DNA of 64,000 nt from Escherichia coli (GTDB taxonomy: Bacteria > Pseudomonadota > Gammaproteobacteria > Enterobacterales > Enterobacteriaceae). This document shows, piece by piece, positions 7,326 to 42,607 of this stretch (the first letter of the stretch is position 1; the number at the start of each line of letters is the position of its first letter). Both the position numbers and the translations under genes were made by a program. The notes beneath the pieces were generated by a model. That model was not told the DNA's origin and did no database searches. It worked only from the letters and a program-made list of their open reading frames with translations. The stretch is from the NCBI RefSeq assembly GCF_024223415.1, contig NZ_CP100500.1, one strand, 5' to 3'.

Positions 7326-7648
7326 TAACGGCAATAAACTGTTCACTTCAGTGATATTTAAAATATGCATCCTCTCCCTTTTTGTAAGTAATTATTATAT
7401 CCGTGGGAGAGGAATACACGCTGTCAGGTAATCAATCATACTGCGATAAATCATCGGCCAGTAAAGTGGAGATAACCTCAATCCATACTCTCAGCGAAAC
7501 TATCATCAATCACTCATCCAGGCGTTTATGGGAGCGTCGCCAATGGCTGTTAACAATGCCAGACTTCCCCGTTGCGGAAATTCCACATACCACTAATGGT
7601 CACAGGGATTGGGTGTTGAAATGATCCGGATGAGCATGTATCTTTATG

Positions 7649-7666
7649 GTTATGTTATAACATAAC
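7649..7666. promoter_or_regulatory. Zur box (perfect 18-bp palindrome GTTATGTTATAACATAAC)
   Basis: Perfect palindrome 9 bp upstream of the ykgM start codon; matches the known Zur operator class and the known zinc regulation of ykgM-ykgO. Confidence 0.7.
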
Positions 7667-7674
7667 AGGTAAAA

Positions 7675-7941
7675 ATGATGAAGCCCAATATCCATCCTGA
7701 GTATCGTACTGTGGTGTTCCACGACACCAGTGTTGATGAGTACTTTAAAATCGGCTCGACTATCAAAACAGACCGTGAGATTGAGCTGGATGGCGTAACG
7801 TATCCGTACGTAACAATTGATGTCTCTTCGAAATCGCACCCGTTCTATACAGGGAAGCTGAGAACAGTGGCATCAGAAGGAAATGTTGCACGGTTCACCC
7901 AACGTTTTGGTCGTTTTGTTAGCACGAAAAAGGGGGCATGA
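7675..7941 (+). CDS. ykgM: ribosomal protein L31 paralog (zinc-independent)
   Basis: 88-aa ORF ([19 protein letters not shown]...) with L31 type B signature; Zur box upstream. Confidence 0.9.
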
Positions 7942-8081
7942 TGAAAGTCCTTAACTCTCTGCGTACCGCAAAAGAACGCCATCCAGACTGTCAGATTGTG
8001 AAGCGAAAAGGACGGCTGTATGTGATTTGTAAATCTAATCCACGTTTTAAGGCCGTTCAGGGTCGTAAGAAAAAACGTTGA
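7941..8081 (+). CDS. ykgO: ribosomal protein L36 paralog
   Basis: 46-codon [49 protein letters not shown]; start overlaps the ykgM stop (ATGATG). Below the track size cutoff; read from sequence. Confidence 0.85.
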
Positions 8082-9096
8082 TTTAAAATTCGACGAATTA
8101 ACGATATTTGTCTGATTAATAATCAGACCGGATTAATGTTGGTGTATTTATTACACCAGCATTAATTTTCCTGGGGATGTATCTTCCTGTTCATTTAAGG
8201 TCAACTGCCTGACGTTTCTCTCCGAATATTCCATTATATTAATGTTGACTTGTTGACCAGCTTCGCCCCTGTATGCTGGCATCAACCCTCTTTTAGACTG
8301 AACACGCCACTCAGTTTCCTCCCTTTGCGACGCAGCCTGCATTTACACTCAAACTGTTAAGATGATAAATGTGGTAAATCTGTTGGTACTGACATAAAAA
8401 CGTTTACGCCACAGGAACGGCCTGATCCACCGGTAACCCCATCGCCGACGTTCGAGTGCCAGTTAGAGTAACGCGCACAGATGACTGAATGCAGTGCCCT
8501 GGCAAAGAGGCCATCGTTCCTGTGACAACTGGCAGTCTTCGTTTAACTTCACTTAATTTGGCTCTTAGGGGGCTTACCGGACAGATGACATACTTACACC
8601 TGTTTAATTTTTCATCACTTATTGGGATGAACACCCATAACCATTTTGTGCGGCATGTTAATCCATTAAAACACCTTACTGATTGGCAAATCATCTTTAA
8701 TTATGACTCATGATAGTTTTATATTCTATTTCTTATCATTTAAACTTGTTTTTTTACTAGTCCATTACACAACATATTAAGACTATTCCTAACACCTCAG
8801 GGCAAAGTTCCTGGCTAATATAAAATGCAAGTAAGAATTGAACGTTATATTGCCAATAACCTTATGAAACTGAATGTCTTTTTCTTCTTATCAAAAAAGC
8901 AATATTTTCATTTTTTGTAAATATTGACTTAACCATGGAATTCATTTTCTGTTCACATATTGACACTCATCAGGAAAAAAACATAAATTTAAACCTAATC
9001 GAAATAATTAAAACTTAATCTCGTTTAACCTATATTGATATGTGCTACGTATCTTATTTACTTCCGATTTACTAAAGAAACTGAATGTACCTGTAA

Positions 9097-9708
<612 letters not shown>

Positions 9709-9782
9709 ACTCCAGGCAAGTTAGTTTTGAAAAATGACTCACTGGGACATCACGTCCTCAATTCAACTCGGGAAGAAATACA

Positions 9783-10370
9783 ATGAAAAAAAAGGTTCTG
9801 GCAATAGCTCTGGTAACGGTGTTTACCGGCATGGGTGTGGCGCAGGCTGCTGACGTAACAGCTCAGGCTGTAGCGACCTGGTCGGCAACAGCCAAAAAAG
9901 ACACCACCAGTAAGCTGGTTGTGACGCCACTCGGTAGCCTGGCGTTCCAGTATGCCGAAGGCATTAAAGGTTTTAACTCACAGAAAGGTCTATTTGACGT
10001 GGCTATCGAGGGTGACTCAACGGCTACCGCCTTTAAACTGACCTCACGTCTTATCACCAACACATTAACCCAGTTGGATACCTCAGGTTCCACACTGAAT
10101 GTGGGCGTGGATTATAACGGCGCGGCAGTCGAAAAAACTGGCGATACCGTGATGATCGATACCGCCAACGGCGTACTGGGCGGCAACCTTAGCCCGCTGG
10201 CAAACGGTTACAATGCCAGCAATCGTACCACCGCACAGGATGGTTTCACTTTCTCCATCATCAGCGGCACCACCAATGGTACCACCGCAGTAACCGACTA
10301 CAGCACTCTACCGGAAGGCATCTGGAGCGGCGACGTTAGCGTACAGTTCGACGCGACCTGGACCAGTTAA
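9783..10370 (+). CDS. ecpA: E. coli common pilus major subunit
   Basis: 195-aa ORF with signal peptide and Thr/Gly-rich pilin sequence; position in the operon. Confidence 0.9.
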
Positions 10371-10427
10371 TCTCTCTGATGTACCAGCAGGGGTAGCCCC
10401 CCTGCTTTATTCCTGGACGGAATTGTT

Positions 10428-11096
10428 ATGAAAAAGCACCTTCTGCTTCTCGCTCTGCTGTTATCCGGAATATCTCCGGCCCAGGCGCTGGATGTCGGCG
10501 ATATATCATCGTTTATGAACAGTGACAGCAGCACGCTGAGCAAAACGATCAAAAACAGTACCGACAGTGGTCGCCTTATCAATATCCGTCTCGAACGGCT
10601 CTCTTCACCGCTTGACGACGGGCAGGTTATCTCAATGGACAAGCCGGACGAGTTGCTACTCACTCCCGCCAGCTTGCTGCTACCCGCCCAAGCCAGCGAA
10701 GTGATCCGCTTCTTCTATAAGGGACCAGCAGATGAAAAAGAGCGCTACTACCGCATTGTCTGGTTTGATCAGGCCCTCAGTGATGCGCAGCGCGATAATG
10801 CCAACCGCAGCGCTGTGGCCACTGCTTCCGCCCGCATCGGCACCATTCTGGTCGTCGCCCCCCGCCAGGCAAACTACCACTTTCAGTACGCCAACGGCAC
10901 CCTGACAAATACAGGAAATGCGACGCTGCGGATCCTCGCCTACGGCCCCTGCCTGAAAGCCGCCAATGGTAAAGAGTGTAAAGAGAATTACTACCTGATG
11001 CCGGGCAAGTCGCGTCGTTTTACCCGCGTGGACACGGCGGATAACAAAGGACGGGTTGCACTTTGGCAGGGTGATAAGTTCATTCCCGTGAAATAG
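10428..11096 (+). CDS. ecpB: common pilus periplasmic chaperone
   Basis: 222-aa ORF with signal peptide; second structural gene of the operon. Confidence 0.85.
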
Positions 11097-11121
11097 ATAG
11101 CTGTGCAGATGGATAACGACA

Positions 11122-13647
11122 ATGCCTTTACGACGGTTCTCCCCAGGACTGAAAGCCCAGTTTGCCTTCGGCATGGTCTTTTTGTTCGTTCAGCCCGATG
11201 CCAGCGCTGCTGACATAAGTGCGCAGCAAATAGGTGGGGTGATTATTCCGCAGGCCTTCAGTCAGGCGCTTCAGGACGGCATGAGCGTCCCGCTCTATAT
11301 TCATCTCGCCGGTAGCCAGGGTCGCCAGGACGATCAGCGAATCGGCAGCGCTTTTATCTGGCTGGATGATGGACAGCTACGCATCCGGAAAATACAGCTG
11401 GAAGAGAGTGAAGATAACGCCAGTGTCAGCGAACAAACTCGACAGCAGCTGATGGCTCTGGCGAACGCCCCGTTCAATGAGGCCCTTACCATCCCCCTGA
11501 CTGACAACGCGCAGCTGGATCTCAGCTTGCGCCAACTGCTGCTGCAGCTGGTGGTCAAGCGCGAAGCGCTGGGCACCGTACTACGCTCACGTAGCGAAGA
11601 CATCGGGCAGTCCAGTGTTAACACCCTCAGCAGTAATCTGAGCTATAACTTGGGCGTCTATAACAACCAGTTGCGTAACGGCGGGAGCAACACATCCAGC
11701 TATCTGTCGCTGAATAACGTTACTGCGCTGCGCGAACATCATGTGGTGCTCGACGGCTCGCTGTACGGGATCGGTAGCGGTCAACAGGACAGTGAATTAT
11801 ATAAAGCGATGTATGAACGCGATTTTGCCGGTCACCGATTTGCCGGTGGAATGCTCGACACCTGGAACTTGCAGTCCTTAGGGCCGATGACCGCCATTTC
11901 AGCAGGGAAGATTTACGGCCTTTCCTGGGGAAACCAGGCCAGCTCCACCATCTTCGACAGCAGCCAGTCAGCCACGCCAGTGATCGCCTTTTTACCGGCG
12001 GCGGGTGAAGTACATCTCACCCGTGATGGGCGGCTACTAAGCGTTCAGAACTTCACTATGGGCAATCATGAAGTGGATACCCGGGGTCTACCGTACGGTA
12101 TTTACGATGTGGAAGTTGAGGTGATCGTTAACGGTCGCGTGATCAGCAAACGCACCCAGCGGGTCAATAAGCTGTTTAGCCGGGGGCGCGGCGCCGGTGC
12201 ACCACTGGCGTGGCAGATATGGGGCGGTAGCTTTCATATGGATCGCTGGTCGGAAAACGGGAAAAAGACGCGACCAGCTAAAGAGAGTTGGCTGGCAGGT
12301 GCCTCGACCTCCGGCTCACTGAGTACGCTTAGCTGGGCGGCAACGGGATATGGATACGATAATCAGGCGGTGGGTGAAACCCGTCTGACGCTGCCGCTTG
12401 GGGGAGCGATCAACGTTAACCTGCAAAATATGCTGGCCAGTGACAGCTCATGGAGCAACATCGCCAGCATCAGCGCCACTCTACCGGGAGGCTTTAGTTC
12501 GCTGTGGGTTAACCAGGAAAAAACCCGCATTGGCAATCAATTGCGACGTAGCGATGCCGACAACCGTGCAATCGGCGGCACACTCAACCTGAACTCACTG
12601 TGGTCGAAGCTGGGCACATTCAGCATCAGCTACAATGATGACCGCCGTTACAACAGCCATTATTACACGGCAGATTACTATCAAAATGTCTACAGCGGTC
12701 CCTTTGGTTCGCTTGGCCTGCGGGCCGGTATTCAGCGCTATAACAACGGCGACAGCAACGCCAATACAGGGAAATATATCGCTCTCGATCTCTCGCTACC
12801 ACTGGGCAACTGGTTTAGCGCAGGGATGACTCATCAAAACGGCTACACCATGGCAAACCTGTCAGCACGCAAGCAGTTTGATGAAGGGACCATTCGCACT
12901 GTTGGTGCCAATCTGTCACGAGCCATCTCCGGCGATACCGGTGATGACAAAACTCTCAGTGGTGGGGCGTATGCACAGTTCGACGCTCGCTACGCCAGCG
13001 GAACGCTGAACGTCAATAGCGCGGCGGACGGCTACGTCAATACCAACTTGACCGCCAATGGCAGCGTCGGCTGGCAGGGTAAAAACATTTCTGCCAGCGG
13101 GCGGACTGATGGCAACGCTGGGGTGATATTCAACACCGGGCTGGAGGACGACGGTCAGATCAGCGCCAAAATCAACGGGCGGATTTTCCCGCTTAACGGC
13201 AAGCGTAACTATCTCCCGCTCTCTCCCTATGGAAGATATGAGGTGGAGTTACAGAACAGCAAAAACTCACTCGACAGTTACGATATCGTCAGCGGCCGCA
13301 AAAGTCATCTGACTCTCTATCCAGGCAATGTCGCTGTCATTGAGCCAGAGGTGAAGCAGATGGTTACCGTCTCCGGTCGTATCCGTGCGGAAGACGGCAC
13401 ACTGCTGGCTAACGCACGGATTAACAACCATATCGGCCGAACCCGAACCGATGAAAACGGCGAGTTTGTCATGGACGTGGATAAGAAATACCCCACTATC
13501 GATTTTCGCTACAGTGGCAATAAAACCTGCGAAGTGGCACTGGAACTCAACCAGGCGCGCGGTGCCGTCTGGGTCGGTGATGTGGTCTGCAGCGGCCTCT
13601 CATCGTGGGCGGCGGTGACGCAGACAGGAGAAGAGAATGAGAGTTAA
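11122..13647 (+). CDS. ecpC: common pilus outer-membrane usher
   Basis: 841-aa ORF with signal peptide; size and position fit the usher. Confidence 0.9.
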
Positions 13648-15280
13648 CCTACTGATAGCGATGATAATCTTTGCGCTAATCTGGCCTGCAACCGCGCTCA
13701 GAGCGGCAGTGAGCAAAACAACCTGGGCGGATGCACCGGCACGCGAGTTTGTGTTTGTCGAAAACAACTCAGACGACAACTTTTTCGTCACTCCTGGCGG
13801 GGCGCTGGATCCGCGCCTGACCGGTGCCAACCGCTGGACCGGTTTAAAATACAATGGTTCAGGAACCATCTATCAGCAAAGCCTCGGCTACATTGATAAC
13901 GGTTACAACACCGGCCTTTATACCAACTGGAAGTTTGATATGTGGCTGGAAAATTCACCAGTTTCATCTCCTTTAACTGGCTTGCGCTGCATCAACTGGT
14001 ACGCTGGGTGTAATATGACCACCAGTCTTATCCTGCCGCAAACCACCGACGCCAGTGGATTTTATGGCGCGACGGTGACCAGCGGCGGCGCGAAGTGGAT
14101 GCACGGCATGTTGTCAGACGCGTTTTACCAGTATCTGCAACAAATGCCCGTCGGCAGCAGCTTTACAATGACCATCAATGCCTGCCAGACCTCTGTGAAC
14201 TATGACGCCAGCAGCGGCGCACGCTGTAAGGATCAGGCCTCCGGCAACTGGTATGTTCGCAACGTCACCCATACGAAAGCAGCAAATCTACGGTTGATAA
14301 ATACCCACTCGCTGGCGGAAGTATTTATCAACAGCGACGGAGTACCGACTCTGGGCGAAGGGAACGCCGACTGCCGGACGCAAACCATCGGCAGCCGTTC
14401 AGGATTAAGTTGTAAGATGGTTAACTATACCCTGCAAACAAACGGACTCAGCAACACCTCAATCCATATATTCCCGGCGATCGCCAACTCGTCGTTAGCC
14501 TCGGCCGTCGGGGCGTACGATATGCAGTTCAGTCTGAATGGCAGTTCATGGAAACCGGTGAGCAATACTGCCTATTACTACACCTTCAACGAGATGAAGA
14601 GCGCAGACTCGATCTATGTTTTCTTCTCGAGCAACTTCTTTAAGCAGATGGTGAACCTGGGGATCAGCGATATCAACACCAAAGATCTATTCAACTTTCG
14701 CTTTCAGAACACCACATCACCGGAGTCTGGCTGGTATGAATTTTCTACCTCCAACACGCTGATTATCAAACCCCGTGATTTCAGCATCAGTATTATCTCC
14801 GATGAATATACTCAGACACCGTCGCGGGAGGGATATGTTGGCAGCGGCGAGTCGGCACTCGATTTCGGCTATATCGTAACCACCAGCGGTAAAACAGCTG
14901 CCGACGAAGTGCTGATCAAGGTGACCGGACCCGCGCAGGTGATTGGCGGGCGCTCCTATTGTGTCTTCAGCTCCGATGACGGTAAGGCGAAAGTACCGTT
15001 CCCGGCGACACTTTCCTTTATTACCCGCAACGGAGCTACAAAAACCTACGATGCCGGGTGCGATGATAGCTGGCGGGATATGACCGATGCGCTGTGGTTG
15101 ACCACACCGTGGACTGATATCTCTGGCGAAGTGGGGCAGATGGATAAGACCACAGTCAAATTTTCGATTCCAATGGATAACGCCATTTCTCTGCGTACGG
15201 TAGATGATAACGGCTGGTTTGGCGAAGTCAGCGCTTCAGGAGAGATTCATGTTCAGGCGACGTGGCGTAACATTAACTAA
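13637..15280 (+). CDS. ecpD: common pilus tip adhesin
   Basis: 547-aa ORF with signal peptide; overlaps the ecpC stop. Confidence 0.85.
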
Positions 15281-15959
15281 GGCCCTGCTGACAGTGGTCT
15301 GTATGCTGGCGGCACCTTTGACACAGGCGATTTCGGTCGGCAATCTGACTTTTTCACTGCCGTCCGAGACTGACTTTGTCAGCAAACGTGTAGTGAATAA
15401 CAACAAAAGCGCACGGATATACCGTATTGCCATCAGTGCTATTGATAGCCCGGGCAGCAGTGAATTGCGCACCCGACCGGTGGATGGTGAACTGCTTTTC
15501 GCCCCCCGCCAGCTGGCGTTGCAGGCTGGTGAGAGCGAGTATTTTAAATTTTACTATCATGGTCCACGGGATAACCACGAGCGCTACTACCGGGTCTCAT
15601 TTCGCGAGGTCCCCACTCGTAACCAGACAAGACGCAGCCCAACCGGCGGCGAGGTCAGCACGGAGCCGGTGGTGGTGATGGATACCATTCTGGTAGTACG
15701 ACCACGTCAGGTTCAGTTTAAATGGTCCTTCGACCAGGTGACAGGAACGGTAAGTAACATCGGCAACACGTGGTTTAAGCTATTGATTAAACCAGGATGT
15801 GATTCGACCGAAGAGGAAGGCGATGCCTGGTATCTACGTCCGGGAGACGTTGTTCATCAGCCTGAGTTACGTCAGCCGGGGAATCATTATCTGGTCTATA
15901 ACGACAAATTCATTAAGATTAGCGATTCCTGTCCGGCTAAGCCCCCTTCGGCAGACTGA
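15249..15959 (+). CDS. ecpE: common pilus chaperone
   Basis: Start taken at the internal ATG 15249 ([11 protein letters not shown]...), preceded by a CAGGAGAG ribosome-binding site; signal peptide follows. Confidence 0.8.
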
Positions 15960-16271
15960 TACTTATCCATCGGTCGAGGGAAGAATTCCACCTCAGAGAC
16001 TCAAAAATCGTTTAAATGATGTGGAAGCGATCGTCAATATCACCTGTAACGATGGGCTTTCTCATATGCACACCATAGTGTTCAGGAGACACAGAAAGGT
16101 ACCAGGCAGCCTGCTAACGAGTGGTTTATTCACGAATTAGTACGTAAAATCGGTAACGGCTGGAAATCATTCAATACTCACACTATCGAAAGTTCCCCAG
16201 CCAACCGCGGTACGTTCTTACATACGATGTACCGCTGTTCTCTTTACGATTTATAGCTGTACTGGTGAATT

Positions 16272-16601
16272 ATGAGCAATCTGAATCCATGCATGACGTG
16301 TGGTGCCTGTTGTGCATTTTTCCGCGTCTCTTTTTACTGGGCCGAAGCCGACGATGCTGGCGGCACTATTCCCGCCAGGCTCACTGAACAAATATCCCCT
16401 TTTCACCGATGCATGAGCGGAACTAATCAGAAAAACCCCCGATGTATTGCCCTTGCAGGAACCCCGGGCAAAAATGCCTGCTGCACGATATATAAAAATC
16501 GATCGTCCACATGCAGAGAATTCGCCATGTCTGGTGAGAACGGAGTCGTCAATGAGGCTTGCAATCGTGCAAGGGCTAAATACGGGCTGACACCGTTATA
16601 A
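16272..16601 (+). CDS. ykgJ: cysteine-rich YkgJ-family protein (putative metal-binding)
   Basis: 109-aa ORF with CxxCxxCC motif ([11 protein letters not shown]); position matches K-12 order as recalled. Confidence 0.8.
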
Positions 16602-16624
16602 ACATACAATAATTAATTGCACTG

Positions 16625-16656
16625 CCCCGCCAGCGATAATAGCGGGGCTTCGTTTT
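16625..16656 (+). terminator. rho-independent terminator after ykgJ
   Basis: Hairpin CCCCGC-N-GCGGGG followed by a T-rich run, directly after the ykgJ stop. Confidence 0.55.
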
Positions 16657-16847
16657 CAGGGACAACAAAACCCGATACTTCTTCTATTTGCCAGCAACAA
16701 TGCCTCTCTTCTGTAGCGTTCTTCGGATCTACATCATCCTGAAGTGGCACGATATACTCACTGGCTATCTGCATCAGAATATAAAAAGCAATGTTTTTAA
16801 CCTATAAAAATGGCGCTGTATTTGCGCCATTTTTATCATTCAATGCA

Positions 16848-17462
16848 TTATCTGTTTGAGCCTAAAGGGATCTCAGGATCTGGCTCATGAGTAATTCTGT
16901 TTCGTAAATCTCTGCGAATAATTTCAATAGACCAGAACCAGACTAAATGTCCAAAAATTTCAGAGACATTCTCATACCACGGAAGATCAAACAGAGGTGG
17001 TGTCAGTCCCATGAGAGGGAATGAAATCATATGAACAAAAAGTTGGGCTAAAGCACCTGCCAGTAAGCCCTGCCAGAGTTTAATTTTTGGAAATACTTCA
17101 GCGACCACACAATAACCGACAGCAAACACTATCGAAAAGATAATGTGCGTAACACCAACCCAGTTAAAGACATGCCCGGCAAAGGTATAAACAGCCGCAT
17201 TGGGATCTGTCAGCCCCAGCCAGTCTCGAAGAAAAATATACGGAGGATTGAGAAAATTACGCGAGCAATCAATTTGCCCAGCAGCCCTGATTAATGATTC
17301 CGGGCCACACGCTGCATTAAACATATCCACCGGGCTACGTGGCGGCAATGGAACTTCAGCCCCCCACTTCACAAATGCGGAAACAACGCCAGCAATCAGC
17401 CCAATGAATGCAGCAAGACCATAACGTCTGCGGTTCGGTGGAGTTTGTTCAAATATATTCAT
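16848..17462 (-). CDS. yagU: inner-membrane protein YagU (DUF1440)
   Basis: 204-aa ORF with several hydrophobic helices; position between ykgJ and paoA. Confidence 0.8.
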
Positions 17463-17878
17463 ATCTACCCTGCTTGTACCATTATGTTATACACCTCTTT
17501 AGGAGTATTCATAAAACAAGGAAAATGTAAAGAACCGTATTGTTTTGTATAACAAGATGGTTGTCTAATCGCCAAAGAATATAAGCACCATCATTTCTCC
17601 CTATTTTTATATTAGAAGTGACATAGATTTGCAGGGTGATGCAGAGCTGACAATCACAGGTTTCCTTATCGGTTTTTGCATCGTACAACTCAAGCAATAA
17701 ACCAGCTCCCATCATCATCAACATCCCGGCGAACATGAATTTATTAGCCGGGCTCATAGCTGCATTCGCGTTTTAAGAATAATCCTCCTGCTGTCGCCGA
17801 CTATGCTTAACGTTTAAAAAAGCATCAGCACTCTCGCAACGCACTCTTATTTTCCCTTTAGAATACCGGAGGCCTGGT

Positions 17879-18568
17879 ATGAGCAACCAAGGCGAATACC
17901 CCGAAGATAATCGGGTTGGGAAGCACGAGCCGCACGATTTCAGTTTGACCCGTCGCGATCTGATTAAAGTGAGCGCCGCAACGGCGGCGACCGCCGTGGT
18001 TTATCCTCATTCTACGCTTGCGGCAAGCGTTCCGGCAGCTACACCCGCGCCAGAGATAATGCCCCTGACACTTAAGGTGAACGGCAAAACCGAGCAGCTT
18101 GAGGTGGATACCCGAACCACGCTACTGGACGCTTTGCGTGAAAATCTGCATTTGATCGGTACCAAGAAAGGTTGCGATCACGGACAGTGCGGAGCCTGTA
18201 CCGTGCTGGTCAATGGTCGCAGGCTTAATGCCTGCCTGACGCTTGCAGTCATGCATCAGGGGGCCGAGATCACCACCATTGAAGGCCTGGGTTCACCAGA
18301 TAATCTTCACCCCATGCAGGCGGCCTTTATCAAGCATGATGGCTTCCAGTGCGGCTACTGCACCTCCGGGCAAATTTGCTCATCAGTAGCGGTGCTAAAA
18401 GAGATTCAGGACGGCATTCCCAGTCACGTCACGGTCGATTTGGTTTCCCCTCCAGAAACAACTGCCGATGAGATCCGTGAACGTATGAGCGGCAACATCT
18501 GTCGCTGTGGTGCATACGCTAACATCCTTGCCGCCATTGAAGACGCTGCGGGGGAGATAAAATCATGA
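17879..18568 (+). CDS. paoA: periplasmic aldehyde oxidoreductase, 2Fe-2S subunit
   Basis: 229-aa ORF with twin-arginine signal ([16 protein letters not shown]) and two 2Fe-2S cysteine clusters ([11 protein letters not shown]; CGYCTSGQ). Confidence 0.9.
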
Positions 18569-19521
18569 AGGCGTTTACCTATGAACGAGTGAACACCCCC
18601 GCCGAGGCGGCACTTAGCGCTCAGCGCGTACCCGGCGCAAAATTTATCGCGGGCGGGACCAATCTGCTGGACCTGATGAAGCTGGAAATTGAAACGCCCA
18701 CCCACCTTATCGATGTGAACGGGCTCGGGCTCGATAAGATCGAAGTGACCGACGCGGGTGGGCTGCGCATCGGCGCACTGGTACGGAACACCGACCTGGC
18801 GGCTCACGAGCGCGTGCGTCGTGATTACGCGGTACTCTCCCGCGCCCTGCTCGCTGGCGCGTCTGGTCAGTTACGCAATCAGGCAACCACAGCAGGTAAT
18901 CTGCTCCAGCGCACGCGCTGCCCCTATTTTTACGACACCAATCAGCCCTGCAATAAGCGCCTGCCCGGGAGCGGCTGCGCGGCGCTTGAAGGCTTTAGCC
19001 GTCAGCACGCGGTGGTAGGCGTAAGCGAAGCCTGCATTGCCACCCATCCGAGCGATATGGCGGTCGCAATGCGGTTGCTGGATGCGGTGGTGGAAACCAT
19101 CACGCCGGAGGGAAAGACTCGCAGTATCACACTGGCTGATTTTTATCACCCACCGGGGAAAACGCCGCACATTGAAACCGCCCTGCTTCCCGGTGAGCTT
19201 ATCGTTGCGGTGACGTTACCTCCGCCGCTCGGCGGAAAACATATCTACCGTAAGGTGCGCGATCGCGCCTCCTACGCCTTTGCCCTGGTATCGGTCGCGG
19301 CGATTATTCAGCCTGACGGCAGCGGGCGCGTCGCGCTGGGCGGAGTAGCACATAAGCCCTGGCGCATTGAGGCTGCGGATGCTCAGCTATCCCAGGGGGC
19401 ACAGGCCGTGTATGACGCGCTGTTCGCCAGCGCCCATCCCACCGCTGAAAACACCTTTAAACTCCTGTTGGCGAAGCGAACGCTTGCCTCCGTACTGGCT
19501 GAAGCGAGGGCACAGGCATGA
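18565..19521 (+). CDS. paoB: periplasmic aldehyde oxidoreductase, FAD-binding subunit
   Basis: 318-aa ORF; start overlaps the paoA stop, indicating translational coupling. Confidence 0.9.
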
Positions 19522-21716
19522 AATTTGATAAACCCGCAGGGGAAAACCCGATCGATCAGCTGAAGGTTGTCGGTCGTCCCCATGACCGCATCGACGGACC
19601 GCTGAAAACTACCGGCACGGCACGCTACGCCTACGAATGGTTTGAAGAAGCTCCCAACGCCGCCTATGGCTATATCGTCGGTTCCGCCATTGCCAAAGGA
19701 CGCCTCACCGCCCTTGATACGGACGCCGCGCAAAAAGCGCCGGGCGTACTGGCTGTCATTACCGCCAGTAACGCCGGGGCACTCGGCAAAGGCGACAAAA
19801 ACACCGCCAGGCTGTTAGGCGGCCCCACTATTGAGCACTATCATCAGGCCATTGCGCTGGTAGTGGCCGAGACCTTCGAACAGGCACGAGCGGCGGCCTC
19901 GCTGGTGCAGGCGCACTATCGCCGTAATAAAGGAGCTTACTCCCTGGCGGACGAAAAACAGGCCGTCAGTCAGCCGCCGGAAGACACGCCCGACAAAAAC
20001 GTCGGTGACTTTGACGGGGCTTTCTCCTCCGCTGCGGTGAAGATTGATGCTACCTACACGACCCCGGACCAGAGCCATATGGCGATGGAGCCGCATGCCT
20101 CGATGGCCGTCTGGGATGGAAATAAGCTTACTCTCTGGACCTCAAATCAGATGATTGACTGGTGCCGCACCGATCTGGCAAAAACGCTGAAAGTGCCCGT
20201 GGAGAATGTGCGTATTATCTCCCCGTATATCGGCGGAGGGTTTGGCGGCAAGCTCTTCCTGAGAAGCGATGCGCTGCTGGCAGCCCTCGCCGCCCGAGCG
20301 GTGAAACGTCCGGTTAAAGTGATGCTCCCCCGCCCCACTATTCCCAATAACACCACGCACCGCCCCGCAACCCTTCAGCATCTGCGTATCGGTGCTGACC
20401 AGAGCGGGAAAATCACCGCTATCTCACATGAAAGCTGGTCCGGAAACCTGCCCGGCGGCACGCCGGAAACGGCGGTACAGCAAAGCGAATTACTCTACGC
20501 AGGGGCAAACCGTCATACCGGCCTGCGGCTCGCCACGCTTGATTTGCCGGAAGGGAATGCCATGCGTGCGCCCGGCGAAGCCCCCGGTCTGATGGCGCTC
20601 GAAATCGCGATCGACGAACTGGCGGAAAAAGTGGGCATCGATCCCGTCGAGTTTCGCATCCTGAATGACACTCAGGTTGACCCCGTCGACCCGACGCGCC
20701 GCTTCTCTCGCCGTCAGCTTATCGAGTGCTTGCGCACCGGAGCGGATAAATTTGGCTGGAAGCAGCGCAACGCCACACCCGGACAGGTGCGCGACGGGGA
20801 GTGGCTAGTCGGCCACGGCGTCGCGGCGGGCTTTCGCAATAATCTGCTGGAAAAATCGGGGGCTCGGGTTCACCTCGAACCAAACGGCACCGTTACCGTG
20901 GAAACGGACATGACCGACATTGGCACCGGCAGCTACACCATTCTGGCCCAGACGGCAGCGGAAATGCTTGGCGTACCGCTGGAGCAGGTTGCGGTTCACC
21001 TCGGCGATTCCAGTTTCCCGGTTTCTGCGGGTTCTGGTGGACAATGGGGCGCGAATACCTCCACCTCCGGCGTTTACGCCGCCTGTGTGAAGCTTCGCGA
21101 AATGATTGCCTCGGCAGTCGGGTTTGATCCTGAGCAGTCGCAGTTTGCCGACGGCAAGATTACCAACGGTACCCGAAGCGCCATGCTAAATGAGGCCACC
21201 GCAGGCGGCAGACTGACAGCGGAAGAGAGCATTGAATTCGGAACACTGAGCAAGGAGTACCAGCAGTCGACCTTTGCCGGGCATTTTGTGGAGGTCGGCG
21301 TGCATAGCGCGACGGGAGAAGTTCGGGTCCGGCGTATGCTCGCTGTGTGTGCTGCAGGACGCATCCTGAATCCGAAAACTGCACGCAGCCAGGTCATTGG
21401 CGCAATGACTATGGGCATGGGCGCGGCACTGATGGAGGAGCTGGCGGTGGATGACCGTTTGGGCTACTTCGTTAATCACGATATGGCGGGGTATGAGGTG
21501 CCGGTCCATGCGGATATCCCAAAACAGGAGGTGATTTTCCTGGATGATACCGACCCCATATCCTCCCCGATGAAGGCCAAAGGTGTCGGTGAGCTGGGCC
21601 TGTGCGGCGTGAGCGCGGCTATCGCCAACGCAGTGTATAACGCCACCGGTATTCGGGTACGCGATTATCCCATCACTCTGGATAAGCTGCTCGATAAGCT
21701 GCCTGATGTGGTTTAA
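19518..21716 (+). CDS. paoC: periplasmic aldehyde oxidoreductase, molybdopterin subunit
   Basis: 732-aa ORF of the xanthine-dehydrogenase large-subunit family; coupled to paoB. Confidence 0.9.
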
Positions 21717-21725
21717 GGAGGAACA

Positions 21726-22682
21726 ATGTCATACCCGCTTTTTGATAAAGACGAACACTGGCATAAGCCAGAGCAGGCGTTTCTCACCGATGACCACCGG
21801 ACCATTCTGCGCTTCGCCGTAGAGGCGCTAATGTCCGGTAAAGGAGCGGTGCTGGTGACGCTGGTGGAGATACGCGGCGGCGCGGCGCGCCCGCTCGGGG
21901 CGCAGATGGTGGTGCGCGAAGATGGTCGTTACTGCGGTTTTGTCTCTGGCGGCTGCGTGGAGGCCGCTGCCGCTTTTGAAGCGCTGGAGATGATGGGCTC
22001 AGGCCGCGATCGCGAAATTCGCTATGGCGAAGGTTCGCCGTGGTTTGACATCGTTCTGCCCTGCGGCGGAGGGATCACGCTGATGCTCCATAAACTACAC
22101 ACGGCACAGCCTCTGCTCGCCGTGCTGAACCGCCTGGAACAGAGAAAACCGGCGGGGCTGCGCTACGATCCGCAAGCACAATCGCTGGTGTGCCTGCCCA
22201 CGCAAACCCGGACGGGCTGGAATCTCAATGGCTTTGAGGTGGGGTTCAGGCCATGCGTCAGGCTGATGATTTACGGACGTTCTCTTGAGGCGCAGGCAAC
22301 CGCGAGTCTTGCAGCAGCCACAGGCTATGACAGCCATATCTTCGATCTTTTTCCGGCCTCAGCCAGCGCTCAGATCGATACCGATACGGCGGTCATTTTG
22401 CTGTGCCATGATCTCAACCGGGAGCTGCCAGTGTTGCAGGCCGCGCGAGAGGCAAAACCCTTTTATCTCGGCGCATTGGGCAGCTATCGAACCCACACTT
22501 TACGTCTGCAAAAGCTCCACGAGCTGGGATGGTCCAGGGAGGAGACAGCGCAAATCCGGGCACCCGTCGGGATATTCCCCAAAGCCCGGGATGCGCATAC
22601 TCTGGCACTCTCCGTGCTGGCAGAAGTCGCCTCTGTACGTCTCCATCAGGAGGAGGATTCATGCCTGCCCCCGTCGTCCTGA
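21726..22682 (+). CDS. paoD: XdhC-like molybdenum-cofactor insertion chaperone
   Basis: 318-aa ORF, last gene of the pao operon. Confidence 0.9.
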   Translation: MSYPLFDKDEHWHKPEQAFLTDDHRTILRFAVEALMSGKGAVLVTLVEIRGGAARPLGAQMVVREDGRYCGFVSGGCVEAAAAFEALEMMGSGRDREIRYGEGSPWFDIVLPCGGGITLMLHKLHTAQPLLAVLNRLEQRKPAGLRYDPQAQSLVCLPTQTRTGWNLNGFEVGFRPCVRLMIYGRSLEAQATASLAAATGYDSHIFDLFPASASAQIDTDTAVILLCHDLNRELPVLQAAREAKPFYLGALGSYRTHTLRLQKLHELGWSREETAQIRAPVGIFPKARDAHTLALSVLAEVASVRLHQEEDSCLPPSS

Positions 22683-22741
22683 TCCTTGCGGCCGGGCGTG
22701 GAAAGCGCTTTCTCACCTGCGGGGGAAATACCATAAATTAA
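22661..22741 (+). pseudogene. truncated nucleotidyltransferase (MobA/MocA-like) stub, 26 codons
   Basis: ATG with GGAGGAGG ribosome-binding site overlapping the paoD 3' end; encodes MPAPVVLILAAGRGKRF..., the N-terminal nucleotide-binding motif of MobA-like transferases, then stops after 26 codons. Confidence 0.5.
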
Positions 22742-22860
22742 GAGAAAAATCTGCAGTAGCCGTTTTAGAAAATCACCTAAATCGTTTAAAAGAGCGCCCT
22801 ACCCATAGTGGTTGCTCATCGCCTTGTGTAACTTATTCAGCAACGCGCGCCCTCGCCGGA

Positions 22861-24054
22861 CTAAAGCGCACCGGCCTTCTGGCGTGCGGTAACAAAGGTC
22901 AGTACGCCCGCGCAAAGGAGCAGCACACTACTCATGGCAAACGTACTCTGCCAGCCAAGGCGGTCAAACACGATGCCTCCTGCCGTTGATCCAAGGGCGA
23001 TTGAGAGCTGAATCACCGCGACCATGAGCCCGCCTCCGGCTTCGGCGTTGTCAGGCAACGTACGCGCAATCCATGTCCACCATCCGGTTGGCGCGGCGGT
23101 GGCCAGCATGCCCCAGAGTCCTAACAGCAGCGAGACCGTCCAGACGTGATGCCCGGTAAGCATCAGACCGATGGCAATGACGGCCATCAGTCCGGGTATG
23201 GCCATCAGCGTGGGGTAGAATTTTCTGTTGAGAAATGTCGAAACAACCAGCGTGCCAATAAAACCGGCCACGCCGATAATCAGCAAAATCAACGACAAGC
23301 CTAAGGAATTAACCCGTGTCACCGACTCCAGAAATGGGCGCACATAGGTGAATAGCGCAAACTGCCCCATGAAAAACAGGCCACAAGCTATCATGCCGAC
23401 CACGACCATGCGGCGGCTAAATAAGCGGAATACCGCGCCAAATGACGCGTGGCTTTTATTCGCATCCATGCTGGGCAGACTAATACACTGCCAGATAAAG
23501 GCGACAACCGCGATAGGCACCAGGCACAAGAAAGCGCCTCGCCATCCGACCGTAGCCCCCAGATAGCTTCCCAGCGGTGCGGCCACGACCGTTGCCAGCG
23601 CATTACCGGCGTTGAAAATCGCCAGCGCACGCGTGACCTGATGCTGCGGCACCAGACGAATCGCCGTTGCCGCTGACATCGACCAGAATCCGCCAATGGC
23701 CACACCAATCATCGCACGACCGACCATATACATCAGATAATTGGAAGCCAGCGCAATAATAAGCCCCGATACGGCCATCAGAACCGTCATCCCCAGCAGC
23801 AGGAACTTACGATTCATCTTTCCAGCTAGCGTTGAAAGCGTCAGGCTGGTCAGAACCGCCAGCGCGCCGGAGATAGCAATCCCCTGCCCTGCAAGCCCCT
23901 CCGTCACGCCTAAATCGCGGGTAATCGGCGTGAGCAGGCTGACGGGCATAAATTCAGAAGCAATCAGCACAAACACGCACAGGGTCATGGCAAAAATACC
24001 GCCCCAGTATGCGCGCTGATGATGAGGTGATGGTGTTTGGCTTAGTGTCGACAT
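22861..24054 (-). CDS. MFS transporter (12 predicted helices)
   Basis: 397-aa hydrophobic ORF with major-facilitator-type loop motifs. Confidence 0.85.
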   Translation of the reverse strand: MSTLSQTPSPHHQRAYWGGIFAMTLCVFVLIASEFMPVSLLTPITRDLGVTEGLAGQGIAISGALAVLTSLTLSTLAGKMNRKFLLLGMTVLMAVSGLIIALASNYLMYMVGRAMIGVAIGGFWSMSAATAIRLVPQHQVTRALAIFNAGNALATVVAAPLGSYLGATVGWRGAFLCLVPIAVVAFIWQCISLPSMDANKSHASFGAVFRLFSRRMVVVGMIACGLFFMGQFALFTYVRPFLESVTRVNSLGLSLILLIIGVAGFIGTLVVSTFLNRKFYPTLMAIPGLMAVIAIGLMLTGHHVWTVSLLLGLWGMLATAAPTGWWTWIARTLPDNAEAGGGLMVAVIQLSIALGSTAGGIVFDRLGWQSTFAMSSVLLLCAGVLTFVTARQKAGAL

Positions 24055-24129
24055 AGTGAAATTTCACAAAGATCAGGATAAAAGCCACCAGCCTATGGCC
24101 GGTGGCTTTGCATCAATTCAGGAGAGGTT

Positions 24130-25266
24130 TTATTTCAGTTTGGTCTGGAAAAATTGTTCGAACTTTGCGAAAGGTATTTTTCCGGCCACGTTATCGTACA
24201 GGTCCACGTGATTTGCCCCTGGTACCACTACCAGCTCTTTGTCGTTACTGCCAACCGCCTTGTAAGCATCTTCAGCAAAATAGCGTGAATGCGCTTTCTC
24301 ACCGGTCACAATCAGCGTCGGGATGGTGATTTCACTGGCGTAGCTCAACAGCGGCATATTCATAAATGACAGCGGCATCGTTGCCGTCCACGCCCCGGTA
24401 GAGTTAACGGAACGTTCGTGGAAGCCGCGCGGCATGCGATAGTAGTCAAAGAACTCTTTCAGTACCGGATGAGGATTTGCCGGCAGCGTTTCTGGCAGAA
24501 TACGCTCGCCCGCACTGACCTTGCCGTTGCTATCGACATTAATATCATGACCACCGTGAGCGAACGTTCCGCTCTGCGCATCCTTCCAGCGCTGTTCATT
24601 CAGATATTGCAGAACAGCACGACGGTCGGCGGTAGAATAACGGTCTTCGCCATCCCCCACACCATGGCCCATCGCCCGGCTCATGTCATACATCACGCTG
24701 GTAGCAACCGCTTTAACGCGGGTATCCATCGCCGCGTCGTTCAGCGCCATGCCGCCCCAGCCACAAATACCGAGCAGCCCGATACGGTTGCGATCTACCT
24801 CTTTTTGCAGCCCTAAGAAATCCACCGCCGCGCTGAAATCTTCAGTGTTGATATCCGGTGAGGCGACGTTTCGCGGATAGCCGCCGCTTTCCCCGGTGTA
24901 AGAAGGATCGAACGCCAGGGTAACAAACCCTCGTTCCGACAGCGTCTGCGCATACAAGCCGCTGGATTGCTCTTTCACCGCGCCAAATGGCCCACTGACC
25001 GCAATCGCCGCCAGCTTGCGATCGCCACGGTCTTTAGGCAGGTAAAGATCGCCCACTAAGGTGATGCCATATCGGTTCGGGAACGATACTTTACGATGAT
25101 CGACTTTCTGGCTCTCGGCGAACGTTTTATCCCATTTATCTGTCATGGACACAGGGGCATTAGGATTGGTTGAATCAGCATAACTCATTGTCGTGACTCC
25201 ACTTAATGATGCGAAAAGCAGCATGGCCGGCATCGCGGTTTTTAGCGTTCGGGTGAAGGCTTTCAT
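24130..25266 (-). CDS. secreted alpha/beta hydrolase (dienelactone-hydrolase-like)
   Basis: Start at the ATG with GGGGA ribosome-binding site (MKAFTRTLKTAMPAMLLFASLSGVTTMSYA signal peptide); IGLLGICGWGG and KELVVVPGANHVDLYD motifs; homologous to the ORF at 4444-5364. Confidence 0.8.
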   Translation of the reverse strand: MKAFTRTLKTAMPAMLLFASLSGVTTMSYADSTNPNAPVSMTDKWDKTFAESQKVDHRKVSFPNRYGITLVGDLYLPKDRGDRKLAAIAVSGPFGAVKEQSSGLYAQTLSERGFVTLAFDPSYTGESGGYPRNVASPDINTEDFSAAVDFLGLQKEVDRNRIGLLGICGWGGMALNDAAMDTRVKAVATSVMYDMSRAMGHGVGDGEDRYSTADRRAVLQYLNEQRWKDAQSGTFAHGGHDINVDSNGKVSAGERILPETLPANPHPVLKEFFDYYRMPRGFHERSVNSTGAWTATMPLSFMNMPLLSYASEITIPTLIVTGEKAHSRYFAEDAYKAVGSNDKELVVVPGANHVDLYDNVAGKIPFAKFEQFFQTKLK

Positions 25267-25452
25267 AAAAATCCCCATAAAAAACAACAGAGAGATACAG
25301 GTTTCCGACGGACAACGCTGCGGTGCTTTACTTTGATGGGGTCATTATAGTGAGCAGAATTAGTGCTGATTAGGGGGCGATTAATGCTAAGATTAATACC
25401 ATATTGTTATAAATTAATGCGAAGATTGCCGGCATGAAGGGGGGATGTTTCA

Positions 25453-26337
25453 ATGGCGAAAAGGGAGAACTACAACGAGCTGTACCTGTTTATGCAGGTG
25501 GTGCGAGAAGGCAGCTTTACCGCAGCGGCTCAGCGGCTGGGTCTTGCTCAGTCAGGAGTCAGCCGTTCTGTTCGCGAGCTTGAAGAAAGGCTGGGCGTCC
25601 AGCTGCTGGTGCGCACCACGCGTAAACTGTCGCTGACGCAAGCAGGCGAGCAGCTCTACCAGAAGACGGCATCTGGATTTGAAATGTTAGATCTTGGGCT
25701 TGCCACGCTGGCGCACTATCGAGAGACGCCCTCCGGCACGGTGCGTATCAATGCCAGCCAGCACGCGATTGATAAATGCCTGCTGCCAAAGCTGGCGGTA
25801 TTTAAACAGCGATATCCTGATATCCGGCTTGAACTGATAAATGAGAGCCGGTTCGTCGATATCATCGAGGAAAGATTCGATGCAGGTGTCCGCCTGGGGC
25901 CTGAAGTCGGCCAGGGCATGGTCGCGGTACGCATCACGCCCGATATGGAGATGGCAATTGTGGGGACTCCGGAACATTTTCGTCGCTATGGTTTTCCGCA
26001 AACTCCGGCGGATTTAAAGGCGCATCCCTGTATCGCCTATCAGTTTGCCGACGGCAGCGTATACCAGTGGGAACTCAATCAGGATGATAAAAAAATCACT
26101 CATCGCCCTGAAGGGCAATGGGCCCTATCCGACAGCTATATGGAAGCAGAAGCCGCCCGGCTGGGCCTCGGATTGGCCTATGTTCCTGTTGAACTGGTCG
26201 CGGATGATTTAGAACACGGTAAGCTTATCAGAGTGTTGCAGCGTTACAGCCTGCGAATGGAGGGATTGTTTCTCTATTACCCTCATCGCAACGTCTCCCC
26301 CGCTCTGCGGATGGTCATTGATACATTGAAAATCTGA
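25453..26337 (+). CDS. LysR-family transcriptional regulator
   Basis: 294-aa ORF with LysR helix-turn-helix; divergent from the secreted hydrolase gene. Confidence 0.85.
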   Translation: MAKRENYNELYLFMQVVREGSFTAAAQRLGLAQSGVSRSVRELEERLGVQLLVRTTRKLSLTQAGEQLYQKTASGFEMLDLGLATLAHYRETPSGTVRINASQHAIDKCLLPKLAVFKQRYPDIRLELINESRFVDIIEERFDAGVRLGPEVGQGMVAVRITPDMEMAIVGTPEHFRRYGFPQTPADLKAHPCIAYQFADGSVYQWELNQDDKKITHRPEGQWALSDSYMEAEAARLGLGLAYVPVELVADDLEHGKLIRVLQRYSLRMEGLFLYYPHRNVSPALRMVIDTLKI

Positions 26338-26562
26338 ACGTTAACAACGACCGACTCTTCACTGTGCAATATTGTGTCAGGTAGTCACTCTGCGTTCAAT
26401 TCCAGGGGCCGCTTTGAGCGAGAAAGAGCGGACTTATCTGTACAAGGGGACTATCCAGCAATGGAGATCACCCAAAAGAAAAAACTACCTGGCTCCCTCA
26501 ACAACCTTCATCCGGGAATTTAGCCTCAATCAACATTTTTATATCTGTCAGGTTACTTCATT

Positions 26563-26836
26563 ATGAAAACCGATCAATATCGTTGTTTTTGTTGTAATAA
26601 TAGAATACGCGTATTTATTCCTCCATTTCTATTAATAACGGCCATAAACTGTTCACTTCACTGATATTTAAAATATGCATCCTTTTCCTGCTTTTCAAGT
26701 TGTTCAGCGGCGTAAGAAAACGTATTAAATATGAATTCGACGATTTAACCATTTCTGTCTGATTGGTAATCATCTGTGATTAATGCTGGTCTATTGATTA
26801 CGCCAGCATTAACCGCTTAGGGATGTATTCTTCCTG
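26563..26836 (+). repeat. degenerate copy of the ykgR region and the ykgO-downstream hairpin element
   Basis: 26576-26683 is about 93 percent identical to 7266-7373 (3' half of ykgR plus flank); 26734-26836 is about 75-80 percent identical by eye to 8087-8189. The ykgM-ykgO module between them in copy 1 is absent here. Confidence 0.7.
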
Positions 26837-27047
26837 ATCATATACAGCCCTCGAAAAAGAGAGAAAATAAAACTGTGTCCAATATTACTCTACCACTCCA
26901 GACCGAAGCATCGGTAGAATTAGCAGAACGACTGGTACAATAGATTGGGATAGCGTCATTTGTCAGGTATTCCATTGCCTGACAAATGACAATTTTGAGT
27001 CAATAGACGTGCTTCTTGATCATGTCTTAAAAATTATACCATGAGCC

Positions 27048-42605: not shown

Positions 42606-42607
42606 AA

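Follow-up and report, generated by a model that had tools for sequence, protein, structure and literature searches.

In Escherichia coli, the commoner fate of incoming linear DNA is circularisation followed by a single crossover, while homology-facilitated illegitimate recombination (HFIR), which has been shown in the same species, is very rare (3e-10 per recipient; PMC3240628). The signature of HFIR is the combination of one homologous junction with one illegitimate junction, and orphaned 3′ ends at T6SS and Rhs loci have been suggested to originate from this process (PMC5361080). Here, we describe a remnant of the ykgR locus in a stretch of E. coli DNA of 64,000 nt (contig NZ_CP100500.1), hereafter the window. 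The remnant, named copy 2 (26567-26844), occurs downstream of an intact ykgR-ykgM-ykgO locus (copy 1). RefSeq already annotates a ykgR pseudogene at 26567-26635 in every lineage sampled; the annotation does not extend to the conserved sequence downstream, the remnants of ykgO and of the terminator, the deletion scar or the 19.3-kb relation detailed below, and we found no paper describing any of these. At roughly even odds (a probability of about 0.5), copy 2 is the displaced 3′ end of a second, older ykgR-ykgM-ykgO-terminator locus, in which case the two-locus arrangement in the window would have arisen from the joining of two old versions of the region.

Anatomy of the two copies

Coordinates were taken from the window sequence itself because the annotation record with which it was compared, NZ_CP084096.1 (E. 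coli O78 strain 3), matches the window at 100% over the query with one 1-nt indel between ~8.3 and 10.9 kb. The features of copy 1 are the following.

7224..7325, plus strand: intact ykgR of copy 1, specifying a small membrane protein of 33 aa (translation MKENKVQQISHKLINIVVFVAIVEYAYLFLHFY, then stop; RefSeq ykgR)
7257..7379, plus strand: block A, made up of codons 12-33 of ykgR with the stop codon, and of the 54 nt that follow
7380..8043, plus strand: 664 bp present in copy 1 and deleted from copy 2 (seen when both copies are aligned with single-locus sequences)
7649..7666, no strand assigned: palindromic Zur box in the ykgM promoter, the sole one in the window (pattern search)
7678..8081, plus strand: ykgM (7678-7941) and ykgO (7941-8081), zinc-independent L31 and L36 paralogs (translations, RefSeq)
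8044..8197, plus strand: block B, made up of the 12 C-terminal codons of ykgO and the terminator region that follows
8132..8169, plus strand: hairpin of the putative ykgMO terminator with a 15-bp stem (8132-8146/8152-8166) and a U run
8151-8342, minus strand: convergent ykgL-like ORF, the stop of which is overlapped by the 3′ arm of the ykgMO hairpin; ecpR is next

The product of the intact ykgR scores 78.1 bits against the NCBIfam equivalog profile NF041474 over positions 1-33 (cutoff 40). The 664-bp stretch holds the ykgR-ykgM spacer, the palindrome at 7649-7666 (which we take to be a Zur box from what is known of how ykgM is regulated), the whole of ykgM and the first ~34 codons of ykgO. 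The features of copy 2 and its direct neighbours are listed next.

25453-26337: LysR gene left of copy 2
26338..26566, plus strand: 229-nt tail 3′ of the LysR gene, bounded on its right by the abrupt non-homologous junction 26566/26567
26567..26689, plus strand: block A′, comprising the ykgR remnant and the former post-ykgR sequence
26567-26635, plus strand: ykgR remnant of 22 codons and stop, without start codon (RefSeq pseudogene “missing N-terminus”)
26636-26689, plus strand: sequence once located 3′ of the ykgR stop, part of block A′
26691..26728, plus strand: scar CTTTTCAAG (26691-26699), then the last ~12 codons and stop of ykgO
26702..26844, plus strand: block B′, the decayed ykgMO terminator region
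26779..26813, plus strand: decaying hairpin of 11 good pairs, a C·C mismatch and 2 pairs (-18.5 kcal/mol), without U-tract
27048-27326, minus strand: BhsA-like gene of 92 aa right of copy 2, followed by SDR, LysR, tRNA-Thr (thrW) and proA

The two copies are collinear direct repeats in the same orientation, and their similarity is far beyond chance. The maximal match of block A (7257-7379 vs. 26567-26689) is identical at 111 of 123 positions (90%; E 2e-45), that of block B (8055-8197 vs. 26702-26844) at 113 of 148 with gaps (76%; E 1e-23). The original prediction had set narrower limits, estimating ~93% identity for the first block (7266-7373 vs. 26576-26683) and ~75-80% for the second (8087-8189 vs. 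26734-26836); over these same intervals, we measured 100/108 (92.6%) and 75/103 ungapped or 84/103 gapped (73-82%), respectively, confirming the repeat. The distance of 50 bp it assigned to the blocks in copy 2 is too large: block B reaches further left into the 3′ end of ykgO, leaving an unaligned gap of ~12 nt, which is itself a microhomology junction.

Two findings had been named that would speak against a genuine repeat, namely an identity no better than that of random AT-rich DNA, and membership of a common dispersed repeat. As to the former, the alignment of copy 2 with the copy 1 region scores 187, against 19.9 ± 2.0 (maximum 26) for 300 other windows of 1050 nt. As to the latter, a sensitive blastn search of 5,426 complete E. 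coli genomes with copy 2 returned one to four places per genome (the two blocks of copy 1 being counted separately, plus an optional copy 2), all of them at these two loci. The many copies at unrelated sites typical for REP/MITE/IS-like repeats were thus not found in these genomes, and Rfam scans of both loci returned nothing relevant. In addition, a codon-degenerate scan of ~100,000 species representatives found the motif confined to Escherichia (E. albertii and Escherichia sp. E1V33), the other eight matches being due to chance and spread over unrelated phyla.

Copy 2 matches copy 1 from end to end apart from one 664-bp deletion, which occurred between TTTT(N)AAG microhomologies and took the Zur box, ykgM and most of ykgO. 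The joint in copy 2 matches TTTTGTAAG next to the end of block A (7380-7388) as well as GTTTTAAGG within ykgO (8044-8052), and the endpoints of the deletion are ambiguous within this microhomology. The sequence at 26691-26728 is identical to 8044-8081 at 26 of 38 positions without gaps, as part of the E 1e-23 match, where CTTTTCAAG-TTGTTCAGCGGCGTAAGAAAACGTATTAA of copy 2 aligns to the ykgO end GTTTTAAGG-CCGTTCAGGGTCGTAAGAAAAAACGTTGA; other lineages retain even the TGA context of the ykgO end. Two alternatives had been offered for the difference between the copies: the loss of the ykgMO module from one of them or its insertion into the other. The last ~12 codons of ykgO, kept in copy 2 beside the microhomology scar, decide for the loss. 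The same scar junction occurs in all copy 2 sequences and in all single-locus variants (see the following section), those of non-coli lineages included, from which it follows that the ykgMO deletion is older than E. coli or has crossed species.

A hairpin is indeed present in both copies; its stem, predicted to measure 12 bp, consists of 15 bp in copy 1 and of 11 + 2 bp with a mismatch in copy 2. The copy 1 hairpin (8132-8166; -23.5 kcal/mol, z -6.2) is followed by UUUU, and a consensus terminator scan did not call it, despite the 15-bp stem, because only four T are there where the scan requires five in eight. In all eight copy 2 and single-locus sequences, pair 19-29 is unpaired (the C·C mismatch), and the lower 10-11 bp are nearly invariant across these variants. 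Two hairpin pairs change on both sides across lineages (C-G/U·G/U-A and G-C/A-U). Because both double changes sit among the presumably functional copy-1-type terminators, with the completed change to T-A in K-12 copy 1, the T·G vs. C-G difference between the copies in the window is a one-sided step, rather than the compensatory change for which it had been taken. The copy 2 hairpin is without the U-tract that directly follows the stem of an intrinsic terminator.

Distribution of the two-locus and single-locus forms

Copy 2 is present in 921 of the 5,426 complete E. coli genomes, although in some strains it is cut by IS1 or AbiE insertions. K-12 is without copy 2, which was removed by the integration of CP4-6 at thrW. 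Recombination of one repeat with the other would be predicted to leave a single-locus form, which we sought and found in three of the 5,426 genomes (6EVA, wlxctx60 and GF4-3). The order of features in this form is fdeC, intact ykgR, block A, the same scar, block B′, the 92-aa gene, SDR, LysR ... thrW and proA, without a ykgMO, ecp, pao, MFS, hydrolase or LysR block. The fusion of an intact ykgR to the deletion scar is new here. The difference from the window is exactly one repeat unit.

7257..26566, plus strand: unit of 19,310 bp by which the two-locus and single-locus forms differ, equal to the start-to-start spacing of the repeats

The unit comprises block A, ykgMO, block B, ykgL, ecpRABCDE, ykgJ, yagU, paoABCD, MFS, hydrolase, LysR and the 229-nt tail; the repeats were thus correctly said to bracket the ecp, ykgJ, yagU, pao, MFS and hydrolase segment. 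The accompanying suggestion that they could mediate rearrangement is supported insofar as naturally occurring genomes are found that deviate from the window by exactly one such unit of 19,310 bp. The 229-nt tail is present only in two-locus genomes and absent from single-locus genomes, and these 229 nt before 26567 match neither copy 1 nor any sequence of the latter; its first ~95 nt are also linked to the LysR module in a different context (L045).

All two-locus genomes seen were 97.1-98.9% identical to the window, that is, at E. coli level. The flanking genes of the single-locus E. coli strains (97.9-98.2%) are likewise inside E. coli diversity. Assembly L025, labelled E. fergusonii, is single-locus and 96.7% identical to the window over 7.7 kb; it was rejected as another species, together with L028/L029, as all are at E. 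coli level by flanking identity. Within a thin sampling of non-coli Escherichia, the single-locus lineages are the KTE114-type (93.8% identity over SDR and LysR) and L042/L043 (94.7%), which are 94-96% identical to each other. Placing the single-locus strains by proA, we found the allele of 6EVA to be rare; its relative LHM10-1 has lost the whole interval via IS1 and a prophage.

E. albertii has ykgR-ykgM-ykgO like copy 1, in a contig that ends just after ykgO, and its homology to E. coli ends at ~8201. The DNA past ykgO matches neither of the E. coli downstream neighbours, and the ORF located there is not a YkgL homolog. Since the homology between copy 1 and copy 2 ends at the same place as that between E. 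coli and E. albertii (~8197-8201), this is a true synteny break. In strain E1V33, copy-1-type sequence after ykgR gives way to a deletion that reaches a thrW island. Thus, both E. albertii and E1V33 carry ykgMO-bearing ykgR loci, candidates for a donor-type arrangement, of which the downstream context is missing or deleted.

An exhaustive HMMER search with YkgR returned only E. coli-like proteins and assembly chimeras; P0009, considered as a divergent YkgR homolog, is a noisy E. coli assembly. Among the YkgM-variant loci, no intact ykgMO was found beside the 92-aa gene or in both copies: the variants led to ICE-borne ykgM, a locus of a different genus and a frameshifted copy 1. Metagenomes scanned for an intact ykgO with the copy-2-type motif behind it yielded 0 matches. 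The search for LysR homologs was uninformative on polarity because clustering at 90% merges Escherichia species.

Origin of copy 2

The two blocks have separate histories: the copies are closer to each other than to sister orthologs in block A, but not in block B. The core of block B is 71-76% identical between E. coli copy 1 and copy 2 or the single-locus sequences, ~88% identical between the KTE114-type B′ and the E. coli B′, and 64-68% identical between E. albertii and all others. Because 71-76% stands against ~88%, the block B split of the two copies predates the separation of E. coli and KTE114. In block A, by comparison, E. coli-specific states are common to copy 1, copy 2 and the single-locus allele of E. 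coli, and E. albertii, E1V33, KTE114 and L042 lack them. The diagnostic sites of block A are as follows.

Copy 1: ATT..GTC..ATT..GCC..TTT..CAG
Single-locus allele: ATC..GTT..ATA..GCC..TTT..CAG
Copy 2: ATC..GTT..ATA..GCG..TTC..CAC
Outgroups: ATT..GTT..(G/A)TT..GCC..TT(T/C)..xxG

The single-locus allele has the derived ATC (and ATA) in common with copy 2, and only ancestral states in common with copy 1. Moreover, amongst ~5,050 genomes, no copy 1 allele is more than 96.7% identical to the single-locus block A. The site patterns rule out that single-locus strains stem from a recent crossover between the modern copies, with copy 1 on the left and copy 2 on the right; the argument involves one or two polarised sites and bears only on such a recent event, an early crossover being compatible with them.

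If copy 2 is the displaced end of an older locus, two versions of the region would have met. In the alpha version, represented by copy 1, ykgR-ykgMO is followed by block B, ykgL and ecp; in the ykgMO-less beta version, ykgR is followed by the scar, block B′, the 92-aa gene, SDR, LysR and thrW. Genomes with the beta version alone do exist; their ykgR is intact, and the locus adjoins the 92-aa gene-SDR-LysR-thrW array directly. The two versions would have been joined in an HFIR-like manner, by one homologous exchange and one illegitimate join at 26566/26567. A beta chromosome may have taken up 19.3 kb or more of alpha DNA with its anchor in ykgR or upstream of it, or an alpha chromosome may have taken up 2.8 kb or more of beta DNA with its anchor at thrW-proA; under both options, ykgR would be intact at the left and the beta 3′ end would be orphaned 19.3 kb downstream.

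Several observations are coherent with this course of events. As expected for HFIR, one side is abrupt, with homology starting at 26567, and ykgR with its upstream flank is continuous in both forms. The distribution of the two forms, the age of the block B split, the polarised sites of block A and the synteny break at ~8197-8201 likewise agree with it. An unoccupied form with an intact gene is provided by the single-locus genomes, which may be pre-event or post-deletion. The contrast between the blocks would also be accounted for: block A may have been kept similar by allelic recombination because it is continuous with shared upstream DNA, and block B would have diverged because it is flanked by unlike sequence on both sides. 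As a 123-nt direct repeat of 90% identity, copy 2 would remain a weak substrate for deleting the 19.3-kb block.

We found neither an alpha-only genome, which would show what first followed the LysR tail, nor a beta locus with intact ykgMO, and both count against the joining of two versions. The same is true of the single-locus E. coli genomes, which are rare (3/5,426) and inside species diversity; secondary loss fits them equally well. Further points against it are the very low frequency of HFIR in E. coli, the lack of a clear microhomology at 26566/26567 and the thin sampling of non-coli Escherichia.

A duplication of the ykgR locus had originally been offered as one of the options for the origin of the repeat. 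The collinear direct repeat is real, as shown above; the duplication is doubtful, given that the block B split pre-dates the separation of the sister clades, the two-locus form occurs only at E. coli level and the single-locus form occurs in non-coli lineages. An ancient duplication is nevertheless the main rival and a plausible one, if less probable than the joining of two versions: a segment of ~0.94 kb (the 3′ half of ykgR, ykgMO and the terminator) would have been pasted into the spacer between LysR and the 92-aa gene before E. coli split from its sisters, after which the copy would have lost ykgMO, recombination between A and A′ would have deleted 19.3 kb, and gene conversion would have kept block A alike. 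Direct repeats in the same orientation would be expected from such a history, and genomes that differ by exactly one repeat unit would be its deletion products. The rarity of single-locus E. coli and their flanking identity within the species range agree with it, as do the old block B split, compatible with an old duplication, and the single-locus block A, whose likeness to an ancestor of the two copies is equally to be expected from an early crossover. However, at least two to three independent deletions through a 123-nt repeat of 90% identity would be needed, and two-locus genomes were not seen outside E. coli-level identity. The right end of the copy coincides with the synteny break also seen against E. 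albertii, and the single-locus allele does not join a left part of modern copy 1 to a right part of modern copy 2. Moreover, no mechanism is known by which a segment of 0.94 kb that begins partway through the codons of a gene would be inserted at a distance of 18 kb.

A Campbell-type integration appears improbable. Here, a fragment reaching from ykgR codon 12 to 229 nt past LysR would have been circularised and integrated by a single crossover in the ykgR-ykgMO-terminator homology, so that the homology would be duplicated on both sides of the cargo, and one copy would later have lost ykgMO. This route is the commoner one in E. coli (PMC3240628) and would yield a split direct repeat around cargo with the abrupt joint at 26566/26567. 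Against it, the crossover must fall in the first ~9 nt of block A to produce the site pattern seen there if the recipient was already ykgMO-less. If the recipient had ykgMO, the identical scar of the non-coli lineages must post-date integration, which would place the two-locus form before lineages in which it was not seen.

Functional state of copy 2 and comparison with known systems

The ykgR frame of copy 2 has a TGA just upstream and no start codon. Its remnant scores 37.6 bits against NF041474, below the 40-bit cutoff, and covers profile positions 14-33 only; it shows neither the full-length match above the cutoff nor the intact ORF under purifying selection that define an intact YkgR family member. 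Among seven distinct copy 2 sequences, there are 3 synonymous to 10 non-synonymous variants in this frame, a neutral pattern. In contrast, copy 1 and the single-locus ykgR allele differ by 3 synonymous changes only, and their proteins are identical. A pattern search of the window revealed no Zur box near copy 2, which is therefore outside the Zur regulon, and no promoter-like site is found on the plus strand upstream of 26563. Judged by its sequence, copy 2 is probably a non-functional fossil that does nothing today.

One open reading frame spans the junction.

26563..26664, plus strand: ATG-started ORF of 33 codons across the junction, in another frame than ykgR, unsupported as a gene

Its ATG lies at the junction, its Cys-rich product is MKTDQYRCFCCNNRIRVFIPPFLLITAINCSLH, and it is open in 10 of the 10 sampled variants, over which only 0.2 stop-creating changes would be expected. 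The frame has 7 synonymous to 6 non-synonymous changes, against 3.6 synonymous ones expected (p ~0.04, binomial, before correction for three frames). The synonymous excess is not significant after this correction, and 26563-26664 is not supported as a gene; its product has no NCBIfam match. It is very improbable that the illegitimate junction created a new gene that reads the old ykgR 3′ half in another frame; if the ORF was translated, it would represent a datable gene birth from a recombination scar.

We attach just as little credence to the more general idea that copy 2 is kept because it is functional, be it through this 33-aa Cys-rich peptide or through the hairpin as a terminator or regulatory RNA for the neighbours. 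The ORF that stays open in all 10 variants, with its 7 synonymous changes where 3.6 are expected, and the nearly invariant lower 10-11 bp of the hairpin would speak for a function. On the other hand, the excess vanishes with the three-frame correction, no more than 0.2 stop-creating changes were to be expected, and neither a family match, an Rfam match, a plus-strand promoter-like site upstream nor a U-tract was found at the locus. In addition, copy 2 is absent from 83% of the E. coli genomes and truncated by IS1 or AbiE among carriers. Chance likeness of AT-rich intergenic DNA (the blocks are 30-37% GC) or a common dispersed repeat can be dismissed in view of the E values, the score of 187 against a maximum of 26, the confinement to these loci in 5,426 genomes, and the ICE-borne ykgM copy, which carries neither block in the conjugative element inspected.

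Returning to the joining of two old versions, the locus would be a natural record of how a core-looking E. coli region by the thrW hotspot was assembled from them. Between Escherichia lineages, YkgM/YkgO, the zinc-sparing ribosomal proteins, are gained or lost as one unit with the ECP fimbrial operon and the Pao aldehyde oxidoreductase. For assemblers and pangenome graphs, a presence/absence variant of 19.3 kb bounded by repeats is to be expected here, and the annotation, which covers the ykgR pseudogene, can be extended to what remains of ykgO and to the dead terminator.

Four described systems come close to copy 2. The RefSeq/PGAP YkgR pseudogene (NCBIfam NF041474; Pfam PF28062) spans 26567-26635 exactly, i.e., the C-terminal 22 codons, but the annotation ends at the ykgR stop codon. 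With regard to the Zur-regulated ykgM-ykgO operon, copy 1 is this operon, with Zur box and terminator, and copy 2 descends from one, although it has only 38 nt of ykgO and the terminator remnant, without a Zur box. As in Campbell-type integration, homology is duplicated on both sides of a cargo that can be excised by recombination of the repeats; a simple single crossover is at odds with the block A site patterns and with where the scar occurs, and there is no integrase or att site here. The orphan 3′ ends of Rhs, CDI and T6SS loci (PMC5361080) share with copy 2 a constant 5′ part, an incoming block with its own 3′ end, a resident 3′ end displaced downstream without a promoter, and one homologous junction where the other is abrupt. 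Copy 2 differs from them by the lack of a toxin/immunity logic, and by a single event in place of an orphan array; here, the gene is that of a 33-aa membrane protein, the block consists of ~19 kb of housekeeping-type operons, and the event may have run in either direction. Set beside these systems, copy 2 is an ordinary, partly annotated genomic fossil, and not a new kind of element or mechanism.

Instability of the copy 2 scar and variation at putative terminators

The deletion scar of copy 2, at which the remnant of the second ykgR locus lacks ykgMO, is unstable. Within window 26682-26699, nine bases (CTTTTCCTG) are present in O78, 6EVA, GF4-3 and KTE114 and missing in O157, E. coli C, the SCU strains and L025 (a single-locus genome), and at the scar site of GF4-3 (L024) TTCAAGCTG occurs three times in tandem. 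The variation looks like replication slippage at the near-repeat CTTTTC...CTTTTC.

The assembly behind L025 (GCA_048109445.1) carries the label Escherichia fergusonii. Its identity to the E. coli window is 96.7% across the 7.7 kb running from frsA as far as the 92-aa gene, and 97.9% in SDR plus LysR. Divergent E. coli reach the same level, which casts doubt on the species label, for that contig at any rate.

Past copy 2, 58 nt beyond the stop codon of the 92-aa gene, the window has a hairpin of 15 perfectly matched base pairs with AATTTTGAGT after it (26955-26990); it may be a bidirectional terminator for that gene. This putative terminator hairpin is broken (CCATAATAATGAC) in GF4-3, SCU-102, L028 (E. 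coli-level by flanking identity) and the KTE114-type lineage. Within E. coli, the ykgMO terminator region of copy 1 (window 8055-8197) also varies to an unusual degree: out of 140 positions, approximately 8 differ between O78 and K-12 (L009), among them both partners of one hairpin pair.

As compared to RefSeq record NZ_CP084096.1, the window contains one single-base indel somewhere within approximately 8343-10945, and the record-to-window coordinate offset changes by one from copy 1 to copy 2. Further downstream, the window harbours repeats of another kind, which have no relation to the ykgR repeat:

42379-46715: REP/BIME-type repeat clusters at three intergenic sites (families D1-D3, 33-164 nt, 3-6 copies each)

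Other deletions between ykgR/fdeC and thrW

In Escherichia sp. E1V33 (L022, 9990-11464), the copy-1-type spacer continues for 46 nt past ykgR, and after approximately 240 bp more comes the thrW-proximal attachment region, which corresponds to window 29267-29357; the intervening sequence of approximately 22 kb is wholly missing. Beyond the attachment region lies an island whose integrase region matches the island of the KTE114-type locus at 98.8% identity. The E1V33 deletion is distinct from the repeat-bounded deletion.

E. coli LHM10-1 (NZ_CP037903.1; L037 and L038), which has a rare proA allele in common with the single-locus strain 6EVA, lacks the whole stretch from a truncated fdeC to thrW, so that ykgR, ykgMO, ecp and pao are gone, and this loss is accompanied by IS1 copies and a prophage at thrW.

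Module genes and ykgM in other contexts

The MFS-hydrolase-LysR module, with approximately 95 nt of the LysR tail, occurs in another context in E. coli FDAARGOS_1373 (NZ_CP069945.1; L045, 1-10084). It is flanked on one side by an Lrp/AsnC regulator and another MFS gene, and on the opposite side by a hypothetical gene and a defence-like pair, an ATP-dependent nuclease and a UvrD-family helicase.

Three loci (L031, L032 and L033, from the E. coli assemblies GCA_028559195.1 and GCA_012322305.1 and from run SRR23373590) carry a second ykgM with a Zur-box promoter and without ykgO, neighboured by conjugative-transfer genes (TraU, TraG_N, integrase). At the DNA level, it is 78% identical to the ykgM region of the window (7580-7948), and a 15-bp tandem duplication results in a 92-aa protein; this gene is apparently a zinc-sparing, mobile L31 paralogue. 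In a non-Escherichia relative with an 80% identical YkgM (L034/L035, 6001-6333), ykgM is located at the ylaC-maa-hha-tomB-acrB locus, and, therefore, the position of ykgMO adjoining ykgR appears to be specific to Escherichia.
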